DNA of 64,000 nucleotides from Kondoa subrosea (lineage: Eukaryota). Positions 30,917 to 64,000 of the stretch are shown here, one piece after another (the first letter of the stretch is position 1; the number at the start of each line of letters is the position of its first letter). Under the pieces are notes generated by a model, which did not search any database, was not told the origin of the DNA, and saw nothing but the letters and a program-made list of their open reading frames with translations. The stretch covers positions 248,001 through 312,000 of the forward strand of contig BCIN01000006.1 in the NCBI GenBank assembly GCA_039545335.1, written 5' to 3'. The position numbers were made by a program, and so were the translations under genes.

Positions 30917-32039
30917 TCAGCAAACAACGCAACATCCACTTCCTTTATCATCTCCTCCTCCAAAAGCACCAGAACTTCTTCTTCTCTTCTCTCCATTTAT
31001 AAAAGGATCTCCTCCCCCATTCTTGTTATTGGTAGGACCAACTTTCCCACTTGGTAAAGTTCGAACGAGCATAGCTGCTCTAGTTGCAGCTTCAAAGATT
31101 TCATCCACTCCTGAATTCAATAGAGCAGAGCATTCGAAATAAGCTCTAGCATTGATAGAAGAACACATTTGTTGCGCCTGATTCCATCACAATCAGGTTT
31201 CTTTGTAGGAAAAAATGCTGAAGAACATACTTGAGCTGTACTGACAAATTTCGTAGCTTTGTCTTCTCCTTCATAAGCATCCCTTAAATCCCTCTTGCAA
31301 CCAACAAGTAAAACAGGTACTGCCGTTCCGTTGATATTCCTTACTTCTTCTGCCCATTTCGTTTCCACGTTATCTAGTGAATCTGGTGTATCGATAGAAA
31401 AGGCAATCACTACTACATGTGATTGAGCGTAAGATAGAGGTCGAAGTCGCTGTATGTTTCGTCTACCCATTAGACACAGAAATTATCTAACGAAGAGCTC
31501 AACTTGCCTCGTATTCTTCTTGTCCTCTGTAGAGTCATCAACTCAAGCTATGTGTTAAGCCGAGAGAGAGACAAACGCTGTATCCCATAATGCCAATTGT
31601 ACAGCTTTCCCATCCAAACTGATTTCAGCAACGTAGCTGTTCAAGCGCCAACAACAATTCAACCAACACACTCTGTCTTGAAAGAAGGTGTGCTCACTTC
31701 TCAAATATAGTAGGGACATATTTCCTTTATACAAATTTCGCATTAGTCAGCTTGATTATATTTCGAAACTCAAACTCAATCGAGCCAAAGAGATTGAGAG
31801 TGAACTGACTTTGGGAATTCTCCATTGGCAAAGACGCAGAGTAAAGAAGTCTTGCCGCATGCTCCATCACCTGAAAACACAATTCCAACCGAATGAGATT
31901 TTGACAGGCTATGTTTGAACTTGAGAGTCGGGCTTACCCACTATGACGAGCTTTCTTCTGAGCTGTACAGGATAAGATGATTAGAACAGGAGATAGAATG
32001 ATGGAGATAGCAGGAACTGACAGGTGCAATGGATGACAT
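30917..32039 (-). CDS. RHO2: Rho-family GTPase, Rho2-like
   Basis: LRRKLVIVG|DGACGKTSLL, DGKAVQLALWDTA|GQEEYE|RLRPLSYAQSHV..FSIDTPDSLDNV, and C-terminal CCVVC prenylation/palmitoylation box. Confidence 0.88.
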
Positions 32040-32775: not shown

Positions 32776-33835
32776 TCAAGCGTGCCTCGCACAAGAACCC
32801 GAGCAGCATGGACCACATCGAAAATTCTCGCAAGCCAAAGCACGCGCACTACCGCAGCCAACGCAACCTCGAGAATCCAAAGTGGTGCCACGTGCAAGTG
32901 CTTTCCTGGTCAATTCTTCCAATGAGATCGGTACAGGCCAAACTTCCAAAGTTTGCTCAATGATAGATTGCGAAGCTATTCTTTGCTGATCAGCTCTTGC
33001 AATAGCCTGCACTCTCGCCTGCTCGGCCTGTTCCGCTGCTCGACGTTGATGCTCGAGAAAAATTTCAGCAGCCTTTTCATCCGCTTTCTCTTTTGCAGTA
33101 ACAGCACGAGAAGTAGCAGCCAAGAAATCAGTCATATCCTTCGCTTTTCCTCTAATCAAAACCTCCCGCCAAGTCAAACCATCTTTACTTCTTTGTCCAC
33201 CAGGAATCGAATCAAGTTTATCGAAAGCCATATCCAAATGAGCATGCCTTTTCTTAGCCTCGAACGCATTTCTAACTGTTTCTTCCATCTCTTGCATCAC
33301 GATATGAAAACGAACGAATTCCACGACGGCATTTGGATCAATAGGTAAAGGTTGAACGATAAAAGAATGATGTTTGGTAGCCAGCAGAGTGTCACTTTCA
33401 GATTTGGCGTCATCAAGAGCAACTTGTAGATCTGATTGATTACCAGTGAATTCGCTAGCCATTGCAGCTTCTTTCAGATTGACTTGATTAGCCCATGCTT
33501 GTGCTTTAGCTAATGCAGCTTGGCAATTTGTAGGGACCCGATCCAACGTTGATGTTGTAGCACTGCTCAAAGAATAAGCACAGCCGCAGACAACGCTTTC
33601 GACGCTAACTTGAATGAGTAAATACTCCTGTCTATCCATTCGACTGCAACAAAGCATCAGTCCATCACGCAAACACGTAGCAAGCAGTTACTCACGAATT
33701 CAGCTCCGAAAGCTGGGACTTGATGCCTACAAGCTCGACCCGGATATTTGCAAGACCATCTTTCAGTAGGTCGCTTAGACTTGGTTCTTCCACGGGCACT
33801 GGACGGCGTCCTTCCTCACTGGATCGAACAGACAT
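32776..33835 (-). CDS. Orphan helical protein with C-terminal Cys-rich zinc finger (CX2CX7CX4CX2CCX3CX2H)
   Basis: 298-aa ORF 32776-33672 plus upstream exon MSVRSSEEGRR...ELNS with a gtgagt donor; ends CVGCGSARALACENFRCGPCCSGSCARHA*. The 5' end is uncertain. Confidence 0.7.
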
Positions 33836-34882
33836 AGTTTCCTCAATACGGTAGACTGAGACAGCTCCAGGCAGAAATGAATGCAAGTATCTGCAATAAG
33901 GCCTGGGTCTCGAAGTACTCTGGGCAGGTGTTGACGGTTTGCGGACAAGACTGCACAATACTTTGTCTCAGGCAGCGAGGTGTGGATCTTGATGTGTACT
34001 CTCGATACGATTCAGCAACATCAGGTCTGCTAATCAGGTCTACCTCTTCGCGATCTTTGCCTCGAAACTTGCTCAGCGACTCAGTCAAATGAAGTCTAAC
34101 TTGCTTAGAGCGCAATCTCGCATGGCAGACTTGCAAGTACAACAGCCATCCTTGACGGATACGTACCTTGGGTCTTCTGCCTTCCTGCTGTACCAAGCTT
34201 TCTGCGATTCCATGCCTTGCGGATTCCATGCCTTTTTCGGTCCAAGATGTTACAACTTGACTCGCTGCTTCTCCGATTGCTGCTTTGGTATTAGCGACCT
34301 CCCTGCAGTCGCAGATATTCCTGGTGGATCACTCACTGCATTCGCTCCTTCTAGCATCTTGAAAATACTAGGCTTGGTTCCGCGAACTTGCGATATGAAC
34401 ACCGATTTTGTCGCGTAATTTACACCTATACTACGTGTGTCACGTCTGCAATACGAATGTGCGAAAGTCTGATGGAGAGCTAATAGATATACACATCACG
34501 CGCACGCACTCGGTCCAAATCATCAATCAGGCGGGAACGAAGACTTTCCTGATCCAGTAAGTCCAGAACCTTAGCTTTGTTTTCTGATCAACAAAGGCGT
34601 AGGTGAAAACTCGCTACACATCTCCTTCCTCTTCTTCTTCTCGCAACCATGCTGTACTCTCTTTCTTTAAACAACGTGAGCGTTCTCCAGCCGCTGAAGA
34701 AGACTATCAGACGCGTAGCTCGCTCTTTGGACTACTCTATATCTGCGACTCGGAACGGTTGGAGACTTAAGCATTGGTCTCTGAACGTATTGATCGTTAG
34801 AACATCTCGACAAACAGATCAGAAGTCTGCAAGCTGTACCAACCAGTAAGGAGTGCGAAAACAGCAGACTTTGGTCCGATTA

Positions 34883-35104
34883 GCTGTAATGGCGAAAGGA
34901 CAAGACTTGCTGGGGTAGTCAGAGGCTAGGCGGCTTTCAGACTTCTGTCTGATTTCGTGCTGAAACCGGACCCATCGACTCGCGAGGCTGGCGTGCAGTT
35001 TGAGTTAACAGTGCTAGATTTGGTCACCGTTGTTGGCTGGTTTGATCACAGGGGAAGAAACATTGAGCGGTTATTGGTCATGACAGTCTTTTTCGGTCGC
35101 TTTT
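34883..35104 (+). ncRNA. Candidate signal recognition particle (SRP/7SL-like) RNA with atypical S domain
   Basis: Starts GCTGTAATGGC (fungal SRP Alu motif); long-range pairing AAGACT 34902-07/AGTCTT 35085-90, GGTAGTC 34914-20/GGTTATT 35069-75, AAACCGG 34963-69/CTGGTTT 35037-43; ends CGGTCGC followed by T tracts. Confidence 0.6.
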
Positions 35105-35120
35105 CTACTCTTTTTTTCTT
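35101..35120 (+). terminator. T-tract, possible RNA polymerase III terminator of the SRP-like RNA
   Basis: TTTTCTACTCTTTTTTTCTT immediately after the 3' strand of the predicted helix; it could also serve as an intron pyrimidine tract. Confidence 0.4.
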
Positions 35121-35613
35121 TATTCTCTCAACCAAAGAAGCTAACGCTTGTTGTATGCAGGTCAATTGCCGCAAACTGCCAGCGTATTCGTTGTGTTGAA
35201 GTGCTTTGCCGTATTTGTGGTTAGAGCGACATGACCATGTGACAATGAATTGTAACTTTGACTTGTGATTCGGCAGTTCCTAGTCTACATCGTTCATCCT
35301 CTCGTTTTAGCATATCCTCGTTGTCTACTCTTATAATCTTAGCTAGGGTTTCCCTTACTGCGAAGATCGATCCGGGTCATACAAACCGTCTAAACGTCTG
35401 CTGCGAATGCGACGAGACAGTTACTATTCTCCGCATTAGAATTGATGACTAGTGCTCGTCATAATCGACTTACTTGTCGTGCGGCTCGGCAGCAGAACAT
35501 CGTCTTTCGTCTTTAGCCAGATGTTTCAAAATTTGATTTACGAGACTATGTACAAGGACGTATGAGCTTGTAATCAGGTCAGAGGCTGCCAGAGATCAAC
35601 TCACCTCTCCGAA

Positions 35614-36567
35614 TTAATCGATCTGAGTAGCTGTCGCCGCACTCGGTCTTCTTGCTCTGCTAAGGATTGCTCGGCATTCCCTCGCTATCTCACCAACACC
35701 TTTGACTCCAGCTTCTTCCCATGCTCGAAGGATTGGCTGGAAGTAAGAATAAGCAAGACGCTATCTAATTCAAACCAAGGACTGACTTCTCTACTCCCCC
35801 AAAGCGAATGTGCTTCGTTTCGATCTTTGTCTACTAGCAGTCTAAGTTGCATAGGAAGATCGAGCAAACGGGGAAGATGGACGAGTGGATCAAAGATATC
35901 GCTGTCCGACTTTGGTACTTCAGAGATAGTGGAGCGAGAAAAAGAAGCAGTGACTTGAGATATGAATTCGAAGGAAGAGCGAAGAGCGTCAAGAGAAGCA
36001 TCGAGTGATTCCGATCGCTCTTGCATCTATTCACTATCAGCTGAAGCTATATTTAATGGAAAGAGAGCGACTCACTCGCTGTATTGTATCGCTTGCTGCA
36101 ATCAACTCGTGATGATGATTATAGACTAATGCTTGACGTTCAGACTCAAGATCCTTGATCTCTTCACGCGTGTCTTGCTCTTTCTTCAGCAGATCGGCGA
36201 CGGAAGCAGTATTGTAGAGATGATCGAATAGCTCTTTCGGGTCAGGTAGAGTAGCGGTATCTGATATGAGCGGAAGAGCAGACATCAGTCAGTCGCGTTC
36301 AGCCAGAGTATGTGCGGCGACGTACCACCTTGAGCTTCCTGTTTCGAAGTTGAAGTGTCGTTCAAGCCATAGTAGTCACGCAAGTTGGTTCTCGCCCTTC
36401 TTTTCGCCTAGGCATACGATTCAATTGATAACGAGATATCGAGCAGCAGGACTTACAGCAGCTCGTTCCAAGACTTGAGCTGAAGCTGTCCTGTTCAAGC
36501 GAGGTGCTAAGGTCGACCTAGAACTAGCGCTTGAAGCTGCTGAAGACCGCCTGTCCAGCGGGGTCAT
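35614..36567 (-). CDS. VPS51: GARP/EARP complex subunit Vps51
   Basis: RARTNLRDYYGL, LLKKEQDTREEIKDLESERQALVYNHHHELIAASDTI, LRAWEEAGVKGV. Confidence 0.87.
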
Positions 36568-36933
36568 TTCCATTCCTTGCAGCGATCAGGCTTCCAAGTG
36601 ATAGAGCTCAGATATCGATGTTGTTTGCTTCCACTGACTTCACTTGAACACCTTGCTGCTCCCTCTAACTCTTGCCAAGGCTCGCTCTCGCTGCAGTCTC
36701 TTCCACTCTTTACACCTATCCTGTCTCTCTGCTTACTCCTTCTCTACCTATTCGGACGGGTATCTCCTCGTTTGGGTTCAAGTCATCGCGATCTGCGGAA
36801 TAAGCAATCTCGATAATTCCTTCGGTACTCTACACGGTGTATTCTGTGGTTATCGCAAGCAAATGTAAGCATGCACGCGGTGACGAAACAATGCTAATAG
36901 TCTAGATGTCATGATATCAATGCTGAAGATTAC

Positions 36934-39533
36934 TCAAACCATTTCGACATCTCCCTCCTCTTCTTCTTTACTAGGCAGCTCTCGCAAGATCGATCCCCAT
37001 TTAGGGAAGACTCGCTTGTACAAATTGAGGCAAACGGTATCCATCTGATCCATAGGTCCATCGAAACCAGCTTTGAAGTAACCATGCGTCCCAAGAGATT
37101 CTTTAATATGACCCGTTCGACCTTTCTTGGTCTTTAGCTGAATAGGCTTAAAGTAGTCAATATCTTCCGAATTGAAGAACATGTAGCGAATAGTAGCTGT
37201 TCGTTTGTGCAGCTTGAAAGGATGACCAGTCAGGATAATCCGCTTGGCAAGCACTCGAGTTGGGTCTGAAGACATCATTGTGCCGCTACCAATGAGTTCA
37301 TGCGAATCGGGCTTGATAAGAAGAGCAGGTACATTGGTACCAAATGTGATGGGAAGATAGCAGGTTGCAACGATAGAGGAAGTAGCTGCTGCTGGTCTGA
37401 AGTAGCGAAGGAACTTGTGTACGTTGTTGGCGCCCTTGCCATGATTACTTTGCGCATGTGAGGAGAAGAGAGGATTGATTGCGAATCGTCTTGGTCCAAG
37501 CAGGAGAATGGCATCATCCTGATATGTGTATTGAGCATTGGCTGCAGATCTGGAGGCGGGAGACTTACCTTTGATCTGATCTCTTCTTCAAACTCTGTAT
37601 TCCTTTGCAAGCTAAAATGCATGACAGTGTATTTGTGTTCGTGCTTATGCAGAGCGTAAACCACAACAGAGTGGGTTTGACTTGATAATTGAGCTGCTGC
37701 TGCTTTCGGAACATCTTTGATGTATATTGTCACTCGTGTACCAGGCTGTAAGCAAGAAAAGAAGTATCTATCAGGTTTCAATCTGAAATGTACTCAATAC
37801 TGCTTACCTCAACACCATCTTCTTGCGCCCTTTTGGTCACTCTCCGAGACATACCCTTCCAATTCTCAAACATGAAGCATCTAGCATAATCTCTTGGCAG
37901 TTGCTCATACGGATCCCAAGGACTCGTTCTAAAACTCTTCAAGCCTCTAAATCTTGCAAATCTTTCTCTAGCAGGCATGTCTTGAGGGGTATCAACTTCA
38001 TCAGGGAAATCCGCATCATCCCTTGACTCAAGTGCTCTTTTCGCTTGGTAGGCAGTATATTCAGCTTGTTCTGCTTCCGGATCTAATTCATGATGCGGTG
38101 CTGTTGATTCAGTATCGACTGCAAAAGAAACAGCTCGAGTAGATTCTTTCATTTCATCGTCTTCCTCTATTTGCTGAATTGGTTCTTCTTCCTCTTCTTC
38201 TTCTGCCACATCTTCTTCTTCTCCGTCATCTTCATCCATAATCCATGCTGCTTGATAATTTGATGTACCTTGAGGTACTTTCTTGAGCCTTTTAGGTGTT
38301 GTTCCAGGTAAAGCGGAAGGAATGACCAAATGATCCGATGAATTGTAACCCGGAGCGGAAGCGATGTCATCTTCAGTAGGCCAAGTTTGTTCAGCTAGCA
38401 AAGCGTCTTCATCGTCCGGTACATTGGTTGATTGTAAATCGTCTATATCATCTTCTGTTGGTTCAGCTATAAGATTAGAAGTAGGTTCAGTTTCCATTTC
38501 GTTCGCTTTTGGTCTTTTGGAAGTAGAAGCAACAGGGGCAGCTTCAATCCGGGAGATTTGGAAATCTCCAAGCCCTTGTAGATGTACCAATCGATCAGCA
38601 GAAAGACAAGCGCCTCGAACGTAGCCAGTAATTTTGAGTGTAGCTTTCTCTTCCTCTGGAGGCGATTCTCCCCACTCTATTTGCTCAGCCAAGATTCTTG
38701 CTCGTTCTTCCCTCCATCCTACACCTCTCGGCACACTTTCACTCATGCTTCTTGTCAAATTCGATAATTCGCTTGAAACGTCCAAAGAGTAAATTCGAGT
38801 GATTTGAGGGAAGAAATGCTGAGAGAAAGATAAGAGTGATTTTCGAATAGCTGTATGAATTGAATGTGATTCGTTTGAAGGTAAAGAAGTGACCAAAGCT
38901 CGAACTCCAGATTCAGGTATACCTAAAGCTGTAATGCATCGAAGCATATTTTCTCCCCATGCATTGACTTCTGTTGTTGAAGAGAGACAGAGTATGACAT
39001 AGTCTGCAGACATGATTGCGTCGACGTTGGCTAAAAGATCGCCATGGAGTGGTGTAAGGTATTGAAAGCTGGTTGATTTGGATCCCTTTGTGCTGCAAGA
39101 GTACGATCAGCGAAGAAGCAGACAATGAGGAAGGATGTACTAACCTTGATTGGTATATAGAACCTAGGCGTTGAGCTGTTTCTTCATCTTCTTCAGATAT
39201 CAAAGAAGCTAAGACTTGCTGAGAATCCACATCATCACACAAGCACAGTAGAGCGACGACCCTAGGCGCTCTTTTCTCTCCAGCATGACCAGATAAGACT
39301 TTGGCAGAAGCCACTAATGCAGCTCGTTTCTGCAATTGGACTTGTTTCGCTGTGTTTCTTCGGGCAGCTTTAGTCTGCTGTGACGTCTTTAGATGTGTTC
39401 TTTCTTCCTTGACGGGCCGTTGAGTCCTCCCCTTTGCTGCATCCTTTAGAGATTTCTTGCTGCTGTGTCCACCACTTTTTTTGAAAGTCTTGTTTGTCTG
39501 CTTAATTGTAGGTCTGTGATGGTGGGACTCCAT
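36934..39533 (-). CDS. TSR1: 40S ribosome biogenesis factor Tsr1
   Basis: HHHRPTIKQTNKTFK, VPQGTSNYQAAWI, FPDEVDTP..PARERFARFRGLKSFRTSPWDP, KRIILTGHPFK..GHIKESLGTHGYFKA. Confidence 0.96.
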
Positions 39534-40198
39534 TTTCAGAGTTCAGCAGACAGCCTGAAAGATATTCCTAGCGTGGGTATCGACTTGGTACAGGACGAGC
39601 CAGCACTGATGCAGATTTGTGAAAATCCATTTTCTTGACTTGGAGCAAGCACTTGATTTTCTGCTTACTGTACATACGTGTCTGTCTACGATCTTGACTT
39701 CAATCTCGTCTCTAGACTGCCCTCTGCATCGCTCATCTTCAAGGCCCAAGTCATCTTTCTCAAATTGCGATTCTGCTCTGTTTTTGAGGCGCCAACCAAT
39801 AGGAGACACGCCCAGGGCTTGGGCAGCTTGGGCTCTCATATTAGGCCTTGTTCAGCCATTATCTAGGCCTATGCCATTTGCGGACCGGGATCTACACCAA
39901 CGGGATTTTTTGCGACCTGATCAATCGCGATCTTGTTCTTTTGTTTCCAATCTGTATATTATTGAGTTCTCTATTATTGCTGCTTCGTATCTTCTGCCTA
40001 TAGCCTTAGAATCGTTCATTTGGGCCAGTCACTCCTTTAATCTCCTTTCCAACTTGGAAGCAGCAATCACCTAATCAGGCTTGCTCAGCGCCATTTTTAT
40101 AATACCCTTCGGCCTGTGCTCTATCATCTCACACTCCGATTAGAGTGTTCTCCGAGGCACTCACGACATATTCAAAAGCTCTATTTGAGATCAAAAGG

Positions 40199-42103: not shown

Positions 42104-44676
<2,573 letters not shown>

Positions 44677-61869: not shown

Positions 61870-64000
61870 ATGCCAGCTCAAAATCGAGGTCGTGGTGGAT
61901 CTAGAGGACGTGGAAATGCTTCTCCTCGCGGTAGAGGTGCTTCAAGAGGCAAAGGCAGAGGGAACGCACTACCCAACAGATATGACGATTTCGAAAGTGT
62001 GTTCTGCACATGCTGGTCCGAACGAAGGCAGAGGTTGATATGTCATTGACAACAAACAGATATCAGTCCTTCTTTTCATCGTGGACTTGGTTTCGCTCCT
62101 CCTAAAGATAAATCTGCTTCTACTACCAAATCGAACGGGTTCAATAGCCCTTATGAAAGACCTTTGCTTAAACCTGTTCTCTTCGTTCGTGGTAGTGCCC
62201 AACCTTTGTTGACTGTTGATCCTCCACCGCAAGAGCGAATACAAGTATCTGAAGAGAAGGATGTGCAACATATCATTCTGCCACTTGCTCCTGCTCAAGA
62301 AGAGCAAGAGATGGAAGCGGTGCCGGCACAGCCTACGGTAGACACTGCAATCATTGATGATACTCAAACGGAAGCAAAATCTTTTCCGCTCGATCCGGTC
62401 GGAGAGCCTTCTCCTGTCATTGAAGCTGTCTCTGCCTCGCATACGCAACCCGAATTCGAAAGTGAAGGTACAGAAGTCAAGGAACCAGCACCTCTCTTCT
62501 TCGTCGATTCAGAACCTTCTTCAACAGAACCGATCTTTACAACAAATACTTATCCCATTCTCGGATTGCAACCAGATTCTGATTCAGAAGAAGATGAAAT
62601 TCTTTACATTCCTCCTTCTCGTCGTACACCAGCTGAATCACTTCCACCTCTTGAGTCCAATTCCCCACCACCATCCCTTCTTCCCATCTTACCTGATCAA
62701 ATAAGTTTACCTCAAATTACTAATACTTCTGAATTACCTTCAATCATTCCTATTGAAGCTTTCGTACCACTTAAAGGAAAGAAAAAGAAACAAGCTAAAA
62801 GAGAAGCTCGATCTAGGAGGAAAAGGGATCGTCGTTCTAATCTTTACAGAATGACTGATTTACCTTCTGATGCTGAAGAATTATCAGTTTCCTCCAATGA
62901 AGAAATAGAAGAGGATGTGATTATTGGAAAAAAGAAAGGAGGTGGAGGAGGGAAATGGAAGAAGAAAGAAGATGCTGCTGTTGCTGATTATATTGCTAAT
63001 GCTATGCAAGATTTGGAAGAAGGCGGAGAAGAAGGAATGACTTCTTTTGAAGCTTCTATCATGTTCAGATCCGGAAGAGGACAAGGTCAAATGACTTTGG
63101 GCGATTTGGAAGATGAAAGAGCTTTGAGAGAGTATGAAGTTGAGAGAGAGATGATGGGTAATGGTGGATGGGAAACAGAAGAAGAAGAAGAAGAAGAAGA
63201 AGAAGAAGGAGATGAGTTGGAGATCGCTTTGGAAGAAATGGATATCCTTGGTGAAAGCAGCGGAAGCGAGGATAGCTTGGACGAAGAGGTACTTCAAAAT
63301 GAAGAGCAAGATAGTAGTGAAGAAGATAGCTCAGACGACGAGATGTTTACTGGCAAAAACCAATGGGCTATGGAACTTGATGATGAGATTGATGTGGGTC
63401 CTCGCTACCTAGTCAGAGTATGGCGTCGTACTGATAATCTATAACAGCGCATTCTGGGAGAAGATCCTGATCTTCTCACTTCCAACGGAAACCGCAAGAA
63501 GAGGAAACAACTATTCAAAGCTGTCACGAATGGAGACTTCTCGATGTTTGATGACGATGATCCAATTTTTGCTCCAGGTCGGTCATTGAGCTGTTTTATT
63601 TTGATGCACATGCTCAATCCTTCCTCATCGGTAGCTTCTTCAAGGAAAGGCAAAGGCAAGAAGAGGGCAACCATGTTTGATTCGGACGATGAATTTATGG
63701 AAGAACTGCAACAACAATGGGAACAAGATCGTCAGCGAAAGTCTTTGCGCAAGAAAGACCGTTTAGCAGCTCGCTTAGCACAAAACCCAACGAAAGCTAA
63801 CAAGAAGAAAGCCAAACGAGCTGGCGTGGAAGTTCGACCTACCTCTTCTGTCAATTTGCGCATCATCCATTCTGATATTGTTGCTTTCCTCCAACGACCT
63901 GATATTCCTTCACTTTCACTGCCACCGATGTCGAAACGGGATCGAGTTGCAGTTCATCTCTTAGCAGAAGCTTATTCCCTAGCTAGCAACAGCAAAGGAT
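61870..64000 (+). CDS. SQS1: SQS1-like R3H (G-patch expected downstream) protein, 3'-partial
   Basis: RG-rich N-terminus, LLKPVLFV, PLFFVD, acidic middle, LQQQWEQDRQRK, R3H start LPPMSKRDRVAVHLLAEAYSLASNSKG at the window end. Confidence 0.8.
63178..63207 (+). repeat. (GAA)10 coding microsatellite (poly-Glu)
   Basis: Uninterrupted GAA run inside the SQS1-like acidic region. Confidence 0.9.

Follow-up and report, generated by a model that had tools for sequence, protein, structure and literature searches.

The closest described systems to the element presented here are the SRP RNAs of basidiomycete fungi. Dumesic et al. (2015, PMC4605306) collected 152 of these RNAs. According to the parts of that paper considered here, the Rfam fungal SRP model fails on basidiomycetes, and the Alu domains of basidiomycete SRP RNAs do not contain helices 3 and 4. 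In Mixia and Rhodotorula the 5' strand of the asymmetric loop is described as shortened, and in Pucciniomycotina the 3' strand of the symmetric loop often carries one additional base. For C. neoformans the same parts of the paper give an SRP RNA of 280 nt with a poly-U end, reported as a Pol III termination signature, which lies outside annotated coding regions and for which they state that introns are not in evidence (PMC4605306). As for S. cerevisiae, primers printed in two papers (PMC4418401, PMC5919780) correspond to an SRP RNA in which nucleotides 3-13 read GCUGUAAUGGC.

A literature search found no report of an intron-hosted or intron-processed SRP RNA. Intron-hosted snoRNAs, the second kind of system considered for comparison, can reside in non-coding host genes.

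We analyzed a window of 64,000 nt from Kondoa subrosea (contig BCIN01000006.1, positions 248,001-312,000, forward strand); all coordinates given below are positions within this window. The sequence is eukaryotic and rich in introns. A scan of the whole window for tRNAs found none, and neither did Rfam give a match at gathering thresholds over the whole window. Three minus-strand genes lie near the locus:

32776..33833, minus strand: upstream neighbour gene, defined by ORF logic, with its start ATG near 33833
35395..36585, minus strand: downstream neighbour, a Vps51-like gene (Pfam PF08700, E=9e-15)
37778-39106, minus strand: 442-aa exon of a Tsr1 homologue, defined by a database protein match

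In the protein search with the Tsr1 exon 8000 candidates were scored, of which 720 reached E<=1e-20, and the best 120 of these 720 were considered. Among the matches listed, Mixia osmundae was the top match at 51% identity, followed by Microbotryomycetes at 44-50%. Since this exon is nearest to Mixia and Microbotryomycetes, the organism is, judged by this protein, a basidiomycete of the Pucciniomycotina kind without a close sequenced relative in the database searched.

The upstream neighbour gene contains, by ORF logic, an intron at 33644-33695, and its search against Pfam returned no family. For the Vps51-like gene a stop is predicted near 35395-35474 from ORF logic alone, and intron candidates are located at 36027-36075, 35546-35604 (score 25.8) and about 35424-35473. 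The neighbours being a minus-strand gene of no Pfam family and a Vps51-like gene, the candidate RNA element therefore occupies a spacer of ~1.5 kb. The 3' end of the Vps51-like gene points toward the element.

The sequence-only reading of this spacer had proposed a structured, SRP-like RNA which is nested in a 315-nt intron of a spliced and probably non-coding host. The element and its parts are as follows:

34881..35093, plus strand: candidate SRP (7SL-type) RNA of about 213 nt, matched to Rfam Fungi_SRP RF01502
34881..34895, plus strand: 5' hairpin carrying GCUGUAAUGGC, with the UGUNR/UGUAAU motif in its loop, from the RF01502 alignment
34896..34901, plus strand: 5' strand of the terminal helix, AAGGAC, 6 bp, from the Rfam alignment and reading of the sequence
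35043..35080, plus strand: tentative helix-8-like hairpin, found by eye
35089..35117, plus strand: Pol III-terminator-like cluster of T5 (35089-35093), T4 (35101-35104) and T7 (35111-35117), from a listing of runs

We put the SRP identity of the enclosed element at about even odds. The SRP-like character was upheld as far as the 5' hairpin and the U-run are concerned. It was not upheld by the score, which reached 15.1 bits where gathering requires 65, or by the folding, which gave no signal.

The alignment was obtained in a scan of positions 34850-35110 (261 nt), where RF01502 was the sole Rfam family matching the element (E=0.1, model positions 1-293). The score falls 50 bits short of the gathering threshold and thus lies below the curated cut-off. 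A weak score on this basidiomycete may be explained in this way, as the Rfam model is described in PMC4605306 as underperforming on basidiomycetes. The SRP match was lost in a 1101-nt Rfam scan, and a scan of the whole window at E<=5 gave eight matches, none of them SRP. Taking into account the 64 kb of the window and the few SRP families, we estimate the expectation of this match at near 0.05. No second copy of the element was found in the window by self-blastn.

Confident alignment to RF01502 was restricted to the 5' hairpin and, at the other end, to the U-tail and the few terminal-helix bases that precede it, while the central region of the element, corresponding to helices 5, 6 and 8, remained unaligned. 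The 5' hairpin (34881-34895) aligned to the first 15 positions of the model with high posterior ('*'). Its 11-mer GCUGUAAUGGC occurs once on the plus strand of the window and not at all on the minus strand. The adjoining AAGGAC (34896-34901) pairs with GUCUUU (35086-35091). The element has a 3' end of the Pol III type, with T5 directly after the terminal helix and T4 and T7 within 29 nt. No internal run of at least four T was present in 34881-35088, and runs of T5 or longer occur on the plus strand of the window at 0.75 per kb. By eye, no TATA-like element was seen in the 60 nt upstream of the element.

The features expected between both ends were less clear. A helix 6 with a GNAR loop was not found in the element, the only clean short hairpin (34937-34952) having a UUCU loop. 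The helix-8-like hairpin consists of a 6-bp stem (UGAUCA/UGGUCA), with CAGG facing AGCG and a 5-nt bulge in the 3' strand. Defined as a motif class (AGG, 8-16 nt, AGCR, stem of at least 6 bp), such hairpins number 8 on the plus and 7 on the minus 64-kb strand, or 0.12 per kb per strand, and 1-8 per 64 kb are found in shuffles. Scanned alone against Rfam, the helix-8-like region matched no family.

The claim of a structured RNA was not borne out by the folding. The element has an MFE z of +0.80, and 157 of 200 shuffles folded at least as well. Five choices of the element boundaries gave z from +1.04 to +1.38, and 120-nt windows starting inside the element gave +0.58 to +1.69; the 120-nt window 34840-34959, which starts in the 5' flank, had a z of -0.97. 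Pairs of the terminal helix had a probability of only about 0.2, and those of the helix-8-like hairpin of at most 0.0004 in RNAfold. The most stable pairing of the 5' with the 3' strand, at -19.4 kcal/mol, was equalled in 5.5% of 1000 shuffles and in 26% of 3763 genomic windows. By this measure the extended 5'/3' duplex, the putative rod of the element, does not stand out from chance.

Constraining the fold to the 5' hairpin and the terminal helix gave a canonical-looking rod with two distal hairpins, in which the 6-bp terminal helix can possibly be extended by 22 bp. In this rod, which lies 4.9 kcal/mol above the MFE, the AGG/AGCG motif is either left unpaired or absorbed into helix 5, and a further 8 kcal/mol is needed to impose the helix-8-like hairpin. 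Furthermore, a helix 8 at 35043-35080 leaves only 13 nt to form the 3' strand of helix 5, at odds with the canonical SRP topology. Also considered and rejected were an RNA extended through the T-runs and a precursor stem between the intron flanks, with pairing no better than in shuffles.

The proposed host was evaluated with an intron model derived from the window itself. The training set comprised 28 short introns, each chosen such that splicing it out connects two open frames that are both at least 60 codons long. They were picked by hand from 63 candidate clusters, and long or ambiguous ones were left out. Their median length is 54 nt (range 41-92), and the exon gaps of Tsr1, mapped with the Mixia protein, are as short. 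The donors are mostly GTRAGT. A branch motif is present in 27 of the 28, CTGAT being the commonest (13/27), and the branch A is separated from the AG by 6-31 nt. Introns were scored as the sum of the position-weight totals of donor, branch and acceptor, and the training introns had totals of 11.9-27.5 (mean 21.3). With this model the intervals of the proposed host are described as follows:

34557..34596, plus strand: putative 40-nt intron, GTAAGT...CTGATC...AAG, PWM total 19.75
34676..34710, plus strand: proposed 35-nt intron with GTGAGC donor and CAG end, a poor fit, PWM total 12.67
34758..34800, plus strand: proposed 43-nt intron with GTTGGA donor and TAG end, not credible, total 2.26
34846..35160, plus strand: putative 315-nt intron around the element, PWM total 20.17
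34649..35230, plus strand: short reading frame of the hypothetical host after splicing, 60 aa once the four intervals are taken out

All splice motifs that had been named for this host were found where they had been located when the window sequence was inspected. The host with four introns was confirmed only in part, as the intervals 34557-34596 and 34846-35160 score like local introns and the intervals 34676-34710 and 34758-34800 fail. For the first of these introns, an alternative acceptor at 34602 raises the total to 20.2. The 315-nt interval begins with the donor GTAAGG at 34846, has its branch GCTAAC at 35140-35145 and ends with the acceptor CAG at 35158-35160 (TGCAG). These splice signals fit the organism's own introns, with 6.48 for the donor, 6.06 for the branch and 7.63 for the acceptor, and the total of 20.17 compares with the training mean of 21.3. 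The length was rightly described as about six times the usual one, 315 nt being 5.8 times the local median of 54 nt in the 28 ORF-supported introns. Regarding the failing intervals, the first is at 35 nt shorter than the training minimum of 41 nt, and the second has a donor score of -4.66 and a total of 2.26 against a training minimum of 11.9.

The host ORF of ~60 aa was reproduced as well, since removal of all four intervals gives 60 aa from ATG 34649. Under other combinations of introns it comprises 28-86 aa. The unspliced 80-aa host frame matched no family in Pfam. A coding host was sought among 59 candidate introns scoring at least 13 and was rejected: with any of these, the best plus-strand ORF reached 135 aa and needed weak sites.

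To what extent such signals arise by chance was estimated from the window and from shuffles. Over both strands of the window 91 pseudo-introns of 225-400 nt score at least 20.17. An element of 213 nt is nested in an equally good bracket at 6.4% of window positions on the plus strand and 2.9% on the minus strand, and in 1.6-3.7% in 10 shuffles. That the long bracket as such goes beyond chance was therefore not confirmed, with equally good ones at 3-6% of window positions and 1.6-3.7% in shuffles. Short sites scoring at least 19.7 are found at 0.16 per kb per strand in shuffles and at 0.51 in the real window, and the chance of such a site in the 350 nt upstream is roughly 6%. Assuming independence, and with sites chosen post hoc, the joint chance of the long bracket and the first short intron is roughly 0.2-0.3%. 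This joint chance is suggestive of a host and far from proof.

Relatives of the locus were sought in metagenome contigs. For a neighbouring 303-aa protein 160 pattern matches were obtained, none of which was confirmed by tblastn. A DNA pattern composed of the 5' 11-mer, a gap of 140-170 nt and a 9-mer of the helix-8-like site was found in 86 stretches. Screening all 86 by script yielded no sequence resembling the element; the highest global score was 20. Twenty of the 86 were passed through Rfam at gathering thresholds without an SRP match. A single stretch had both a T5 run and AGCR (L077) and was discarded as unrelated. Another one (L007) is similar at the two anchors and was likewise discarded, as it gave no SRP match and aligned poorly; its fold, which began inside the 11-mer, had a z of +1.58. 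At gathering thresholds one further stretch (L037) was recognized by Rfam as an unrelated TwoAYGGAY RNA.

Our preferred reading, held tentatively and at somewhat less than even confidence, is a candidate stand-alone SRP RNA gene of the Pol III type in the intergenic spacer, with coincidental splice-like signals. According to this proposal, 34881-35093 on the plus strand would encode an SRP RNA of the reduced-Alu type, as in dikaryan fungi. RNA polymerase III would initiate a few bases ahead of GCUGUAAUGGC and stop at the T5 that follows the terminal helix directly, or failing that at T4 or T7, and the transcript would join the SRP proteins. The splice-like signals would play no role in making the RNA and would stem, at most, from an unrelated low-level transcript. 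Transcription, polymerase, RNA ends and SRP function of the element are all what we infer from its sequence, which itself shows the motifs with their scores and chance rates. The RF01502 match argues for such a gene, as it covers the model in full, 5' hairpin and 3' U-tail included. Also in its favour are the 11-mer with which yeast SRP RNA starts, the helix-8-like hairpin on the same strand, the T-runs behind the terminal helix and, as regards the splice-like signals, the two failing intervals and the lack of a coding host. However, the T-runs could equally be the 3' region of the opposite-strand Vps51-like gene, and the long bracket and the first short intron score like true introns, which speaks against mere coincidence of these signals. 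That no functional small RNA exists here, and that chance in intergenic DNA produced both the SRP-like features and the splice-like signals, is a serious if doubtful alternative. The 11-mer, the T-rich 3' tract of the neighbouring gene and a loose AGG/AGCR hairpin would then account for the likeness to SRP RNA, an explanation we consider possible to the same limited degree. It agrees with an Rfam score 50 bits under the threshold and a match that is absent from larger scans, with folding z values of +0.8 to +1.4, with a terminal duplex that 26% of random genomic windows equal, with the helix-8-like region having no Rfam match and with the lack of a related sequence among the 86 metagenome stretches. 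It fits less well with the 11-mer lying exactly at the RNA 5' end of the model and having a closing stem, and with the T5 ~210 nt downstream and the AGG/AGCR hairpin in between; these features are weak singly, but their order is right. Moreover, the lineage is one in which, as described in PMC4605306, the Rfam model fails.

The remaining explanations accept a small RNA and differ in how it is made or what it is. A Pol III SRP RNA gene could lie within the 315-nt interval as an intron of a non-coding Pol II transcript, one which begins near 34500 and in which splicing joins 34845 to 35161 on the plus strand. This appears unlikely to us; so does the arrangement that it implies, in which two transcription units overlap and the small RNA is made independently. 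The totals of the long bracket (20.17) and the first short intron (19.75) are near the mean of the 28 true introns, each of the two arises by chance in a few percent, and the distance of 16 nt between branch point and acceptor is within the local 6-31 nt. Against nesting, the intron would have 5.8 times the local median length when no training intron (n=28) exceeds 92 nt, two of the four introns of the host do not conform to the local model, the choice of sites was made post hoc, and the end of the host would have to be no more than about 100-250 nt away from the converging Vps51-like gene. The same splice signals would serve a release of the RNA from the spliced intron in the manner of snoRNAs, by debranching and exonuclease trimming and without Pol III. 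From the 3' end of the element it is about 56 nt to the branch point and 72 nt to the acceptor, a spacing that resembles that of intronic snoRNAs. Still, a T5 at the exact end of the terminal helix together with back-ups is needed for Pol III termination and not for trimming, the intron flanks have no extended pairing, and the literature search found no intron-processed SRP RNA, so that release by splicing is the least supported option and extremely improbable. A C/D or H/ACA snoRNA was rejected by eye (neither UGAUGA nor an ANANNA hinge was seen, and the 3' hairpin has only 38 nt), and the Rfam matches to the element included no snoRNA family. Another real small RNA, e.g. a 7SL-derived or lineage-specific Pol III transcript which keeps only the Alu-type 5' hairpin, would be compatible with the good alignment of only the 5' hairpin and the U-tail and with S-domain features that are missing or doubtful. 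We regard it as quite unlikely, as no non-SRP Rfam family matches, no second copy is present in the window and the search for relatives gave none. Provided that the RNA is real, its autonomous synthesis by Pol III, with or without an overlying Pol II transcript, is the economical reading, because the T-run cluster ends the terminal helix exactly, no C/D or H/ACA boxes are seen by eye and the intron flanks show no extra pairing. The proposal taken as a whole, i.e. an unusually small SRP RNA (~213 nt) of a deep-branching Pucciniomycotina fungus, with helix 8 near its 3' end, lying in sense in an outsized intron of a non-coding host and with an output coupled to or derived from Pol II splicing, is very improbable.

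At present the stand-alone SRP RNA gene candidate is of value as an annotation lead. If it is an SRP RNA, it would be a very compact and oddly arranged example in a fungus whose nearest sequenced relatives share only about 50% Tsr1 identity, and it would broaden the spectrum of noncanonical SRP RNAs known from basidiomycetes. Should the nesting hold too, the locus would show something rarely seen in a compact fungal genome, a Pol II host to which an essential Pol III RNA gene is tied.

Among known systems, intron-hosted snoRNAs resemble the locus in that the small RNA lies between donor and branch point of a transcript without a long ORF, the putative host. They differ from it since the element has no C/D or H/ACA boxes by eye and carries a T-run terminator of its own. 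Compared with the fungal SRP RNAs of RF01502, the element is much shorter, has no thermodynamic signal and leaves the central helices unaligned; its terminal helix with the 3' end and its 3' U-run are alike. With S. cerevisiae scR1, as far as the printed sequence extends, and with RF01502 it shares a 5' hairpin whose GCUGUAAUGGC lies two bases in from the start. Unlike in basidiomycete SRP RNAs, helix 8 would be positioned 13 nt from the 3' end, and the length of 213 nt contrasts with the 280 nt given for C. neoformans (PMC4605306). In the features that are covered by the parts of Dumesic et al. (PMC4605306) considered here, the element otherwise resembles the basidiomycete SRP RNAs: the taxon fits, being Pucciniomycotina-like by Tsr1, the Alu domain has no helices 3 and 4, and the element ends in poly-U and lies outside coding genes. 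As in the Pucciniomycotina RNAs of that paper, compared by their description, the asymmetric loop of the candidate hairpin has a 5' strand shorter than the 3' strand, and its symmetric loop has an extra base in the 3' strand.

The spacer in which the candidate SRP RNA element (34881-35093, plus strand) is located is flanked by two minus-strand genes. Upstream of the element it is partly filled by two overlapping open frames on opposite strands (33843-34418), and its downstream neighbour is a Vps51-like gene (PF08700) with the 3' end towards the element. The annotated features were:

30917-31940, minus strand: Rho-type GTPase gene, several short introns
33843-34328, minus strand: open frame, 161 aa
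33993-34418, plus strand: open frame, 141 aa
35395-36585, minus strand: Vps51-like gene, apparently at least four short introns
about 35424-35473, minus strand: putative intron, Vps51-like gene
35546-35604, minus strand: putative intron, Vps51-like gene
36027-36075, minus strand: putative intron, Vps51-like gene
about 36408-36456, minus strand: putative intron, Vps51-like gene
36934-39542, minus strand: Tsr1 gene (ribosome biogenesis), short introns, matched by tblastn in four segments

The 161-aa frame, the only one of the two frames submitted to a Pfam scan, had no Pfam match. On the side facing the element, the Vps51-like coding region seems to extend ~300 nt beyond the limit given by a simple listing of ORFs; a junction near 35738-35786 was ambiguous by frame logic. 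The Tsr1 and Rho-type GTPase genes are ordinary housekeeping genes and served for taxonomy and intron statistics.

Within the putative second exon of the proposed host, a short TCT/CTT-rich tract was present at 34616-34642 (plus strand). It resembles low-complexity tracts elsewhere in the window, e.g. near 42930, 63180-63217 and 36947, and such tracts explained all notable self-blastn matches.

The metagenome stretch L037, which matched a two-anchor DNA pattern drawn from the element, carried a full TwoAYGGAY RNA (RF01731, 107.6 bits) at 2582-2745 on the minus strand. The match is due to chance and this RNA is without relation to the finding on the element.

At the 5' end of the element (34882-34935, plus strand), RNAfold predicted a helix of 10 bp, at a probability of ~0.9, between GCUGUAAUGGC and GGCUAGGCGGCU (34925-34935). 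This predicted pairing, which may be functional or have arisen by chance, could form in place of the SRP-type 5' hairpin (34881-34895) with which the element starts in the Rfam Fungi_SRP alignment.
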